From positions 12,638 through 76,637 of the forward strand of contig CAYTZZ010000010.1 of assembly GCA_964442645.1 (NCBI GenBank): DNA of 64,000 bases. Reading direction: 5' to 3'. Positions 21,072 to 24,268 of this stretch are shown here, piece after piece; position 1 is the first letter of the stretch, and every line of letters starts with the position of its first letter. The notes below the pieces were generated by a model. That model was not told where the DNA came from, made no database searches, and was given only the letters and a program-made list of their open reading frames with translations. Made by a program: the position numbers and the translations under genes. The DNA comes from an uncultured Bordetella sp. Its GTDB lineage: Bacteria; Pseudomonadota; Gammaproteobacteria; Burkholderiales; Burkholderiaceae_C.

Positions 21072-22019
21072 TCAGTGCTGTTCCATGGCGCGGCGATGCC
21101 GCTCCACAAAATCGTCGTAGGTGTTGATGCCCCGCAATTGCAGAATGGAGTTGCGCACCGCGGCCTCGACCAGCACCGCGATGTTGCGGCCTGCGACCAC
21201 CTGAATCACCACTTTGCGTACCGGGATGCCCAGCACGTCTTGCGTCAAGGGCTCGTGCGGCAGGCGCTCATAGTCTCGCTCCAGCGTTTCGCGCCGCACC
21301 AGGTGCACGATCAGCTTCAGGCGCATTTTGCGGCGGACCGCCGTTTCGCCAAAGATAGCCCGAATGTCCAGCAAGCCAATGCCGCGCACTTCCAGCAGGT
21401 TTTGCAGCAGCTCAGGGCAACGCCCTTCGATGGTGGTCTGGTTGATTCGGTACAAATCGACGGCGTCATCCGCCACCAAGCCATTGCCCCGGGAAATCAG
21501 CTCCAAGCCCAGCTCACTCTTGCCCAGACCAGACTCTCCGGTGATCATCACGCCCAGGCCCAGAATGTCCATGAACACGCCATGCATCGAGGTGCGGTCG
21601 GCAAAATGCTTGGACAAGTAAGCCCGCAACAAATCGATCACAAATGCGGAAGATTCGTGGGTGGAAAACAAGGGAATCTGGGCGCGTTCACACAGCGAGA
21701 CCAAGGCGTCAGGCGGTTGCTGGCCGTCGGCGAGCACCAACACCGGCGGCTCCAAGGTCACAATGCGGGCGATGCGACGCGCACAGTCTTCAGGGGTCGC
21801 ATTGGTCAGGTAGCGAACCTCGCGCTCGCCCAGCAATTGCAAGCGGTACGGGTGTATGTAGTTGAGGTAACCGACCAAGTCGGCGCCCGAGCGGGCGGCG
21901 CGCACGGCCACTTCGTCAAAACGACGCTCGGAGGCCCCCAGCCCGGCCACCCATTCCCAGCGGAGTTTTTGGCGGAAATCTTCGAACAGAACCTCGGCAC
22001 TGACAACGGTCGGTTTCAC
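21072..22019 (-). CDS. hprK: HPr kinase/phosphorylase
   Basis: Walker [37 protein letters not shown] start at 22019 with GAGGAG upstream. Confidence 0.93.
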
Positions 22020-22047
22020 GTTCGAACTTCTCCTCGGTCGGCCGCCC

Positions 22048-22515
22048 TCAAGCGGTCTGGGCGGAATTCCAGGTGGCGATGGTGGTGTGCAAAACCTGCG
22101 CGTCGGTGCAGGCTTTGAGCTTTTCGCGCAAGGCGGAATCGCTGAGCAGTTCGGCGATTTCGGACAAAATTTCCAAGTGTTTCTGTGTCGAAGCCTCGGG
22201 CACCAGCAAAAAGATGAGCAAGGCCACGGGCGCCTCGTCAGGCGCATCGAAGCCAATCGGCTCGTGCAACTGAAACACCGCCGCCATGGGGGACTTGAGC
22301 CCTTTGATGCGCCCATGAGGAATGGCCACGCCGTGGCCCAAACCCGTGGAACCCAGACGCTCCCGGGCAAACAAGCTGTCTGCCACCAGGGCCCGGTTCA
22401 AGCCGTGCAGGCTCTCAAACAGCAGCCCGGCTTCTTCAAAAGCACGTTTTTTGCTGGTGACATCCACGCCCACAAGGACGTGGGCAGGTGGCAAGATGGC
22501 GGCAAGTCGATTCAT
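22048..22515 (-). CDS. ptsN: PTS IIA nitrogen-regulatory protein
   Basis: [19 protein letters not shown] (phospho-His motif); downstream of hpf. Confidence 0.93.
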
Positions 22516-22601
22516 GATGAGCGGCTGATTATGCACCCGCCAGCGACGCACGGGTACACCACAACATGAATAAAAAATGCTTCTTTTCGGCGTGCGCCAT
22601 G

Positions 22602-22626
22602 AAAAAAGCCGCCCGAGGGCGGCTTT
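22602..22626 (-). terminator. Intrinsic terminator after hpf
   Basis: Minus strand reads AAAGCCGCC-CTCG-GGCGGCTTT-TTT, just past the hpf stop. Confidence 0.75.
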
Positions 22627-22641
22627 CACGCGTCGCCTGGC

Positions 22642-22971
22642 TTACATCGCGCGCTTGGCGGTGGCGTGATGATGGTCTTGCAAGCGGTCTTTGTGGCGCA
22701 CCACCTGGCGGTCCAACTTGTCGACCAAATCATCCACAGCCGCATAAAGGTCTTCATGGGCGCTTTCTGCGAACATGTCGTTGCCTTTCACATGAATATT
22801 GCACTCCGCGCGCTGGCGCTTTTCCTTCTCCTTCTGTTTTTCAACGGTCAGCAGAACTTTGACATCCACCACTTGGTCAAAGTGGCGAATGACCCGGTCT
22901 AATTTTTGGGTCACATAGCTGCGCAAGGCAGGTGTGACTTCCAAATGGTGACCACTGATCGTCAGATTCAT
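22642..22971 (-). CDS. hpf: Ribosome hibernation promoting factor (HPF/RaiA)
   Basis: [47 protein letters not shown]. Confidence 0.95.
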
Positions 22972-23103
22972 AGCGCGCCTCCTTATAGCTATCGATGAGA
23001 GATGTCTGCGAGCGCCGACCGTGCTTGTTTTAGCCTGCGCCCACGGTTTCACTATGCGCCGACTGCCTCAGAAAAGCAACTCTCTACCGCACAAACTTTT
23101 TGC

Positions 23104-23133
23104 TTGGCTGCCAGCCTCTGCCAATGCCATAAT
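23104..23133 (+). promoter_or_regulatory. Candidate sigma70 promoter for the corA leader
   Basis: TTGGCT-18 nt-CATAAT with a TG extended -10 element (TGC-CATAAT). Implies a leader of about 140 nt. Confidence 0.4.
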
Positions 23134-23155
23134 GCGTGCTTCACAAACAGCGGAG

Positions 23156-23263
23156 ATGACTCCTTGGAAACCTACCCTAGTTGGTAGCTTTCGGGTCCCC
23201 CTGGCAATTGGCGCCACCCGGATTCGAAAGCTCTTGCCCCTGAACCCTTTCGAACGATGGTGA
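23156..23263 (+). CDS. Putative 35-aa Pro-rich leader peptide (uORF) upstream of corA
   Basis: MTPWKPTLVGSFRVPLAIGATRIRKLLPLNPFERW, five Pro; stop lies 18 nt before the corA ATG. SD is weak because GGAG abuts the ATG. Confidence 0.35.
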   Translation: MTPWKPTLVGSFRVPLAIGATRIRKLLPLNPFERW

Positions 23264-23281
23264 CACCCCACCACAATTGCC

Positions 23282-24268
23282 ATGCTCAATATTTTCACGC
23301 TGGCCAACGGCCGCCTGTTCCAGGAAGAAATTGAATCCCTGGAAGAACTCTCCAAATTCCAGCCGATCTGGGTGGACTTGGAAGCCCCCACCCTGGAAGA
23401 AAAGCGCTGGATCAAGCAGTACTACGGCTTGTCAATTCCCGAAGACGCGATGGACGAGGACATCGAGGAATCGGCGCGTTTCTACGAAGAAGACAACGGC
23501 GAGTTGCACATCCGCAGCGACTTTTTGATTGCCGACGAAGATGCGCCCCGCACCGTGCGTGTGGCTTTCATCTTGAACCAGCACAACCAGGACCTGAAAA
23601 GCCGTGGTGTGCTGTTTTCGATCCACGACGAAGACGTGCCGGTGTTTCGCCTGCTGCGCCTGCGTGCGCGCCGCGCGCCCGGCTTGATTGAGGACGCCAA
23701 GGAAGTCTTGCTCAAGCTGTTCGATGCCGACGCCGAGTATTCGGCCGACACCCTGGAGAACATCTACGACCAGCTGGAGCAAGCCGGCAAGATGGTGCTG
23801 TCCGGCGATGTCACCGACGCCCTGGCCGGGGAAGTGCTGGGCGCCATTGCGCGCCAGGAAGACTTGAATGGCCGCATCCGGCGCAACGTGATGGACACCC
23901 GGCGCGCGGTCAGCTTCATGATGCGCTCGCGCATGCTGAATGCCGAACAATTTGAAGAGGCCCGGCAAATTCTGCGCGACATTGAGTCGCTGGACAGTCA
24001 CACCGCGTTTTTGTTCGACAAGATCAACTTCTTGATGGACGCCACCGTGGGTTTCATCAACATCAACCAGAACAAGATCATCAAGATCTTCTCGGTGGCC
24101 AGCGTGGCCTTGCTGCCCCCGACCTTGATCGCCAGCATCTACGGCATGAACTTTCAGTTCATGCCCGAGCTCAACCAAACCTGGGGCTACCCCATGGCCC
24201 TGGCCCTGATGGTCGCCAGCGCCCTGGTGCCCATGTGGTATTTCCGAAAGCGCGGCTGGCTGAAGTAA
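23282..24268 (+). CDS. corA: Magnesium/cobalt transporter CorA
   Basis: IEESARFYE, LLPPTLIASIYGMNF (GMN selectivity motif), two C-terminal TMs, YFRKRGWL. Confidence 0.96.
   Translation: MLNIFTLANGRLFQEEIESLEELSKFQPIWVDLEAPTLEEKRWIKQYYGLSIPEDAMDEDIEESARFYEEDNGELHIRSDFLIADEDAPRTVRVAFILNQHNQDLKSRGVLFSIHDEDVPVFRLLRLRARRAPGLIEDAKEVLLKLFDADAEYSADTLENIYDQLEQAGKMVLSGDVTDALAGEVLGAIARQEDLNGRIRRNVMDTRRAVSFMMRSRMLNAEQFEEARQILRDIESLDSHTAFLFDKINFLMDATVGFININQNKIIKIFSVASVALLPPTLIASIYGMNFQFMPELNQTWGYPMALALMVASALVPMWYFRKRGWLK

Follow-up and report, generated by a model that had tools for sequence, protein, structure and literature searches.

The Mg2+ channel gene corA of an uncultured Bordetella sp. is preceded by a leader RNA that can take up two mutually exclusive conformations and carries a conserved upstream open reading frame (uORF) of seven codons. 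We regard it as fairly probable that this leader is a translational switch for corA, operated by a leader peptide and common to the Comamonadaceae. The gene (23282-24268, taken from the list of open reading frames (ORFs); Pfam PF01544 CorA, E = 2.1e-54) lies in a stretch of 64,000 nucleotides (nt) from contig CAYTZZ010000010.1. This whole stretch is called the window, its own numbering is used, and features are on the plus strand unless a minus sign is given. In state B, segments 2 and 3 of the leader would form a 12-bp helix, P2, with an anti-start sequence locked and corA translated (ON). In state A, segment 3 would pair with a downstream segment, d, while a hairpin, P1, is closed over the uORF and the anti-start sequence occupies the ribosome-binding region of corA (OFF). 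The helices of both states co-evolve among relatives. By its sequence the element would be a leader-peptide switch of the corL type known from enterobacteria, with a different RNA architecture and a predicted output at the level of translation.

Two alternative structures in the corA leader

A consensus scan placed a sigma-70-type promoter, TTGGCT-18 nt-(TG)CATAAT (23104-23133), upstream of the element, and transcription of corA would start at about 23140. A near-invariant core, CCUUGGAAACCUACCCNAGUYGGUAGCUUUCG, was found in 23 of 30 leaders from the same genus. In all 150 distinct relatives a NATAAT hexamer is located 29-38 nt (mode 32) 5' of this core, directly preceded by TG in 126 of them. 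Since this -10 box is conserved upstream, the stems sit in the transcribed 5' leader, which is about 140 nt long from near 23140.

A preliminary description of the region had proposed a two-state RNA switch in which one pairing (B) destroys two stems (A), and direct reading of the sequence located all four segments exactly where it had placed them. The B pairing had been given as 8 bp, AGCTTTCG (23186-23193) with CGAAAGCT (23225-23232), which is too short: P2 extends over 12-13 bp, 23187-23198 with 23220-23231, and encloses a small hairpin. Its 5' strand, segment 2 (GCUUUCGGGUCC, 23187-23198), begins at the G of the uORF stop codon, and its 3' strand is segment 3 (GGAUUCGAAAGC, 23220-23231), for which segment d (23247-23262) is the alternative partner. 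The enclosed hairpin, P3 (UGGC...GCCA, 23202-23216), contributes in its 5' part the anti-start sequence UGGCAAUUG (23202-23210). Among the A stems, P1 (23167-23192) is formed by GAAACCTACC (23167-23176) and GGTAGCTTTC (23183-23192) with one C.C mismatch, and comprises an upper stem, CUACC/GGUAG, and a lower stem, GAAA/UUUC. In the second, CTTTCGAA of segment d (CUUUCGAA, 23247-23254) pairs with TTCGAAAG (UUCGAAAG, 23223-23230), possibly extended by GGUG (23259-23262) with CACC (23215-18). P1 and the pairing of segment 3 with d had stood as the alternative to B, but the chief partner had been missed, namely the pairing that sequesters the corA start. Here the anti-start sequence forms a 9-bp duplex of -13.7 kcal/mol with CAAUUGCCA (23274-23282), in the corA translation initiation region, CAAUUGCC plus AUG (23274-23284), which would be sequestered in state A. 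Like riboregulators that sequester a Shine-Dalgarno (SD) sequence, the leader has two places for its anti-start sequence, the initiation region in one state and another helix, which locks it away, in the other.

Covariation and co-evolution of the helices

With the core and GAAAGC as anchors, P2 has 12 contiguous pairs, and in an alignment of 65 class representatives (A1) 7 of them show changes on both sides. Its covariation score of 0.286 was above that of all shuffles (0.159, with 0 of 500 reaching the observed value) and of all controls in which the strands were slid (at most 0.128), which bears out strongly the B pairing of the preliminary description. One position may serve as an example, with A-U in 73 relatives and G-C in 55. 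When one genome per genus was used, 10 pairs of the stored structure (P2 and the upper stem of P1) changed on both sides, 7 of them in P2. The upper stem of P1, with 3 double-changed pairs among 49 genera, gives weak support to the first hairpin as it had been described.

Most genera have A(A/G)CUCCC as the inner half of P2's 5' strand, complementary to the SD of corA in GGGAGU(GAGCC)AUG, so that the OFF pairing would be that of ACUCCC with the SD GGGAGU; a clear SD for corA is absent in the window genome and in leaders of the window type, and there UGGCAAUUG would pair with CAAUUGCCA. When P1 was enforced in 148 leaders, this inner segment was paired with the ribosome-binding window in 98 and the interior of P2 in 28, with either or both so paired in 118, while segment 3 was paired with d in 146.

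Co-evolution of these pairings was assessed by comparing the duplex of each leader with its own partner and with foreign partners, using 68 class representatives; two negative controls were not significant. The anti-SD:SD duplex was at -9.8 kcal/mol with its own and -7.3 kcal/mol with foreign partners (p = 8e-7), the inner P2 duplex at -8.75 and -6.15 kcal/mol (p = 1e-10), and the duplex of segment 3 with d at -15.9 and -11.7 kcal/mol (p = 3e-11), the own pairing of the last being the better in 58 cases against 9. The second A stem of the preliminary description therefore co-evolves with its partner. Within the window-type group, the own pairing of anti-start with start was the stronger in 37 cases and a foreign one in 7 (p = 1.5e-7); for segment 3 with d the tally was 45 to 0. 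The reversed control of the latter was also weakly significant, because TTCGAA is palindromic.

Concerted changes of both partners were also found between genera, from ACUCCC/GGGAGU to AUUCCC/GGGAAU, and to CUCCCAAAUA/UAUUUcGGGAG and CGCCCGUGAC/GUCACGG. Leaders of the window type show GGAUGAU/UCAUCU as against GGAUGGU/ACCAUU, and compensatory extensions of segment d occur within the genus (GGACG/CGUCC versus GGGCGG/CCGCCC).

Many of the P2 pairs are G.U, so the structure belongs to the sense RNA. This bears on a very different view, in which the conserved core would be bound by a protein or a small RNA, or would act as a DNA operator between the divergent genes hpf and corA, and the stems would be by-products of a palindromic sequence of the TTCGAA type. 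The view could draw on the hexamer CTTTCG(A), present three times (two direct copies, one inverted), on the palindrome TTCGAA, and on the slightly significant reversed control mentioned above, and yet we consider it highly improbable. On the other strand the many G.U pairs of the helices would be A.C; the element lies downstream of the conserved -10 box and is thus transcribed; and in other genera the repeated hexamer is replaced by other sequences that are again complementary to each other. Moreover, genomes of the same genus without the element keep the upstream region of hpf (22642-22972, minus), the gene divergent to corA, and the position of the hpf promoter is independent of the element.

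A sub-variant of the leader has no SD before corA (L044, L056, L057, L071, L076 and L102). In it, the alternative helix of segment 3 with a downstream copy spans about 20-22 bp in L044, L056 and L102 and fewer in L057 and L071; in L076, P2 is interrupted by an insert longer than 100 nt.

Folding of the nascent and the complete leader

Conformation A is the fold of minimum free energy for 23140-23285 (-44 kcal/mol; z = -2.57 relative to dinucleotide-shuffled sequences, of which 1 of 200 was as stable). Partition-function folding of the same segment, which had been proposed with the preliminary description, gave about 94% A and 6% B at equilibrium, a gap of 1.7 kcal/mol, with a probability of 0.94 for the pairing of anti-start and start. 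It is because of conservation and covariation, not of single-sequence folding, that the structure can be called more than chance. A nascent RNA ending just after 23233, past segment 3, was predicted to be in state B (P = 0.998).

The same behaviour was seen in the models for 148 leaders. The median of G(B) - G(A) was +1.0 kcal/mol, B being the more stable state in 58, and P2 was formed by the truncated nascent RNA in 145. In the full leader P2 was dominant in 56 and the lower stem of P1 in 59. The start region of corA had a mean unpaired probability of 0.27 in state A versus 0.49 in state B, and was more open in B in 118 of the 148 relatives. In these folding models, P2 is shown to be the first to form on the nascent RNA and the full-length RNA to be poised between the two states, a pattern that is, as modelled, one of a kinetically set, poised switch. 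Together with the covariation among relatives, the near-equal energies of the states across the 148 leaders uphold the earlier proposal of a two-state RNA on the sense strand of the corA leader.

A short reading frame at the start of the leader

The uORF of the window, UUG GAA ACC UAC CCU AGU UGG UAG (23164-23187), would be translated as M-E-T-Y-P-S-W-stop. It has a GGAG (23152-23155) 8 nt 5' of its start and overlaps P1 with codons 2-8. This GGAG was present in 136 of 150 relatives, at a spacing of 6-9 nt from the start codon (8 nt in 110). The start codon among the same relatives was TTG in 119, GTG in 21, ATG in 10 and CTG in none. On the CorA tree its first base changed at least 11 times independently, never by a T-to-C transition. 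The consensus of the frame across relatives is UUG GAA ACC UAC CCN AGU YGG UAG. A survey with one genome per genus, for which 50 of 56 hits were used, that of the window's own genome included, found the start codon in 50 of 50 and a peptide of the form M-[E/D]-x-x-P-S-[R/W/C], which for comparison with E. coli CorL is written M-[E/D]-[T/S/A]-x-P-S-[R/W]. The frame is 7 codons long in 41 of the 50. In the other nine (L213, L218, L220, L222 and L226-L230) the UAG is lost and the frame crosses the 5' strand of P2, ending after 11-16 codons at a UGA or UAG within the helix. Eight of these nine keep the SD, the start codon and M-E/D-x-x-P-S-R; L220 reads MEPHPIG. Some synonymous variety was also seen in this survey, Ser being once TCT and Arg being CGG, CGC, CGA or CGT, and in L199 the changes of TAC to TAT and of CGG to CGA are at once synonymous and compensatory in the stem. 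The SD, its spacing and a variation of the first codon restricted to start codons support translation of the uORF, and its sequence would seem to serve the RNA and, probably, translation.

Involvement of a uORF, as proposed in the preliminary description, is consistent with this conserved frame; another frame, noted separately from that description, an ATG frame of 35 codons (23156-23263), was rejected, as its ATG abuts the GGAG without any spacing and is missing in relatives of the same genus, the frame being restricted to the window genome and its nearest relative. The GGAG also faces a CUCC (23160-23163), with which it could form a weak hairpin, P0 (23152-23163). P0 was 84% paired, and its covariation is no better than in shuffles; it was rejected as a conserved hairpin. 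As GGAG is fixed and its partner drifts, the site is more readily understood as an SD for which a weak hairpin is optional.

The strong conservation of this region could also be understood if the leader were a riboswitch responding directly to a ligand or ion, with the core GGAAACCUACCCNAGUYGGUAGCUUUC and P2 as an aptamer for Mg2+ or a small ligand that stabilises one state, and the reading frame incidental or secondary. The core, with the loop bases A-G-U, is indeed conserved beyond coding needs, the energies of the two states nearly coincide, and the expression platform is one of the classical kind that sequesters an SD. We nevertheless think such a riboswitch improbable. Against an aptamer stand the SD at optimal spacing, the changes of the first base that always lead to another start codon, and the retention of P-S-R with other codons (TCT, CGC/CGA/CGT) and in the different RNA structure of Escherichia coli. 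The frame also stays open for 11-16 codons in the nine genera that have lost the stop codon, and the element has no match in Rfam.

Distribution of the element

A pattern search found the core once each in 82 of 401 genomes of the family, in 52 of 201 genera, and not at all in the reversed control. A scan of one genome per species gave at least 120 contigs with the core. Where carriers have a genus label, this is a Comamonadaceae name, with the exception of a few metagenome-assembled genomes labelled Bordetella. Ramlibacter, Rhodoferax, Limnohabitans, Acidovorax, Paracidovorax, Comamonas, Curvibacter, Diaphorobacter and Hylemonella are among the carriers, and the leader on a contig of Limnohabitans sp. 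ZLKRG32 is almost identical to that of the window, which would assign the window to Limnohabitans or something closely related. In 164 loci the start of corA (MLNIF...) was found 95-217 nt after the core, the eight exceptions being cut off by locus ends, so the element is upstream of corA at every locus with readable downstream sequence. In the window's genome the core occurs in a single copy, with zero hits in the reversed control. A repeated or mobile element is ruled out by this one copy and by the one hit per genome in relatives.

A covariance model, R1, built on the 5' domain of the leader gave one hit each in 55 of 150 genera of the family; 148 genomes representing about 60 further families of the order gave none. 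The flanks of 21 hits (20 mostly of the weakest, plus L199) were read, and all lie before corA. One locus of the family that is negative with R1 (L246, genome G229) has a diverged uORF, MDSTPPSCVLSATPVTV followed by a stop, with an SD GGAG, 175 nt before corA; the device is therefore wider in the family than the 37% of genera detected by the model. Judged from these sequence searches, a corA leader device is conserved across the Comamonadaceae.

In the genus of the window, 7 of 30 genomes (L011, L012, L014, L017, L021, L025 and L027) are without the whole element and have a short plain leader. The promoter was recognisable in three of the seven, L011, L012 and L017, where 27 nt separate the end of the -10 box CATAAT from the ATG and an ordinary SD, AAGGGA, comes after the box. 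Presence or absence of the leader element within the genus is a natural polymorphism.

An Rfam cmscan of 22500-23800 at E <= 10 returned nothing in the leader, and nearby only weak look-alikes at the terminator of hpf; a known RNA family was rejected on this result. No description of the element was found in a full-text literature search.

Relation to known leader systems

The enterobacterial likeness pointed out in the preliminary description is best placed with the corL-corA leader of E. coli and Salmonella enterica (Kriner & Groisman PMC5314796; Vezina Bedard et al. 2024 PMC11552253), which controls the same gene and shares the type of uORF start and the N-terminus of the peptide. In enterics, corL is translated more as Mg2+ increases, and its translation represses corA through Rho; corA expression falls when the corL UUG is changed to AUG and goes up when the start codon is destroyed (PMC11552253; PMC5314796). 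How Mg2+ is sensed by corL is still open (PMC11552253). Both systems have a short uORF that is preceded by an SD, starts with UUG and overlaps the first stem-loop of the leader, and both have two mutually exclusive conformations. Both would couple uORF translation inversely to corA expression, here by prediction only. E. coli corL (ysgD) reads UUG GAC ACA CCC AGU AGA ..., or M-D-T-P-S-R-Y-W..., and since it begins with UUG and M-D-T-P-S-R the Comamonadaceae ORF resembles it: M-E-T-Y-P-S-R here has the same AGU codon for Ser, and the E. coli peptide one residue fewer. CCCAGU is in a stem strand in E. coli, whereas CCNAGU is in a loop here, and the shared constraint therefore looks like coding. 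The differences are that the uORF has 18 codons there and 7 here, that the leader is about 280 nt as compared with about 140 nt, and that the RNAs, with stem-loops A-E in the enterobacterial leader, cannot be aligned. With R1 the E. coli leader reaches 4.3 bits, at the uORF start only and with the helices of the model non-pairing, and Rfam has no family for the enterobacterial corL leader. The output differs as well, being a rut site with Rho termination in enterics and here a co-evolving sequestration of the corA ribosome-binding site. No corL-like uORF was found before corA in other families, in 11 loci at class level and 16 at order level, the E. coli positive control being recovered; with none in these 27 loci, descent and convergence are not told apart.

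The shared residues would be accommodated if the heptapeptide M-E/D-T-(x)-P-S-R were itself the sensor, as a minimal nascent-peptide motif common to corA leaders of Beta- and Gammaproteobacteria despite their unrelated folds, which we find conceivable but doubtful. Completion of the mini-ORF would then depend on free Mg2+ through destabilisation of the ribosome or slow decoding of Pro, Ser and Arg, and the effect would fall just as the leading edge of the ribosome meets P2. The ribosome would be the Mg2+ sensor, with 5-7 residues in its tunnel.

The mgtL-mgtA leader (PMC11552253) is alike in that a leader peptide with an acidic residue next to the start and with proline is combined with alternative stems upstream of a gene for a Mg2+ importer. 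It differs in that the present leader has no match to the Rfam Mg_sensor (RF01056), its peptide has one acidic residue and one Pro, and its promoter is a conserved extended -10 promoter of constitutive appearance, as opposed to a Rho-dependent output and a PhoPQ promoter in mgtA. The M-box (ykoK) Mg2+ riboswitch is likewise an RNA element that precedes genes for Mg2+ transport, and that of Mycobacterium tuberculosis is reported to control a small uORF, again with a translational platform (PMC12810186). The size and conserved nucleotides are unrelated, however, and no match to RF00380 was obtained by cmscan at E <= 10; by Rfam the earlier judgement that the leader is not an M-box holds, and it is no mgtA Mg_sensor either.

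The action of corL and mgtL through Rho raises the question of a Rho-dependent attenuator like those of the enterobacterial corA and mgtA leaders, in which the conformations would mainly govern access to a rut site in the C-rich linker, with hiding of the SD as a secondary matter. The linker from segment 3 to the SD of corA has 42% C and 15% G over about 38 nt, and an untranslated corA mRNA would in any case be open to Rho. Against this, the C-rich stretch is short and in part required for segment d, segment 2 co-evolves with the ribosome-binding region itself, and a scan for promoter and terminator signals found no terminator-like site in the corA leader. We therefore hold it unlikely that Rho is the primary output, although a Rho layer on top of translational control is possible.

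A model for the control of corA

In the switch that we favour, operated by the leader peptide at the level of corA translation, P2 would form first on the emerging RNA and keep the anti-start sequence locked, so that corA can be translated. The leading edge of a ribosome is about 11-15 nt ahead of its P site. A ribosome translating the uORF would thus reach P2 with Pro5 in the P site, and at the stop codon it would have most of P2 opened; because the G of the stop codon is the first nucleotide of P2, a ribosome finishing the uORF would have to unwind that helix. Segment 3 would then be free to take d, and on release of the ribosome P1 would close again, the anti-start sequence would capture the start region of corA, and corA would be off. 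Translation of corA would on this model be inversely coupled to that of the uORF. By analogy with corL and mgtL, Mg2+ acting through uORF translation may be the trigger. If the uORF is translated less efficiently at low Mg2+, CorA would be made when Mg2+ is scarce.

The arrangement recalls translational attenuators of the ermC/cat type, which have four segments pairing as 1:2 and 3:4 or as 2:3, and a leader ORF over segment 1. The four-segment logic, the short leader ORF over segment 1 and the hiding of the target ribosome-binding site in one state are common to both. In erm, a drug-stalled ribosome turns the gene on, whereas here the stop codon abuts segment 2, and a ribosome completing the ORF is predicted to destroy the ON helix; there is also no link to an antibiotic here.

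Several observations weigh against a peptide-operated switch of this form. The lower stem of P1, GAAA/UUUC, the other half of the first hairpin described previously, is without any compensatory change. In the cases where U25 is changed to C, compensation is found in P2, whereas P1 has a mismatch in its canonical register that a shift by one base would repair; the evidence on the lower stem therefore points neither way. When extended without gaps, the anti-SD helix was only 51-54% paired, as against 30-40% in slid controls, and was dropped as an argument, so that the anti-SD claim rests on the own-against-foreign tests and the concerted changes between classes. The codons GAA, ACC, UAC and AGU of the uORF are nearly invariant at synonymous sites, and such conservation beyond coding needs would be compatible with a role at the RNA level, as an aptamer or a protein site. 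Residue 7 was switched between Arg and Trp at least 19 times on the CorA tree, and the peptide is therefore not strictly conserved. Finally, the direction of the switch, from uORF translation to OFF, and the Mg2+ signal are drawn from geometry and analogy only.

Genomic surroundings

Next to the leader, hpf, ptsN and hprK are grouped on the minus strand (21072-22972), with no rpoN upstream of the trio; in many proteobacteria rpoN has the position that corA takes here. A strong intrinsic terminator, AAAGCCGCCCUCGGGCGGCUUUUUU (22599-22680, minus), lies between hpf and ptsN and gave only sub-threshold Rfam look-alikes (Phe_leader and P9).

Significance

Most bacteria take up Mg2+ mainly through CorA, which was long regarded as constitutive. 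To our knowledge, regulation of corA by a leader, corL, has been shown only in E. coli and Salmonella. The element described here is a compact corL-like case, of about 140 nt with a 7-codon ORF and two states defined by covariation, and its output appears to be the plain hiding of a ribosome-binding site. Its carriers include cultivable, non-pathogenic strains of Acidovorax (such as A. delafieldii DSM 64 and A. facilis DSM 649), Comamonas, Ramlibacter and Rhodoferax, and natural controls and variants exist in the 7 of 30 genomes of the same genus without the element and in the extended uORFs of other genera. As the peptide motif is common with E. coli CorL in a different RNA context, it can be tested whether the peptide or the RNA carries the Mg2+ signal. 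If the peptide itself were the sensor, the ribosome would sense Mg2+ with only 5-7 residues in its tunnel.
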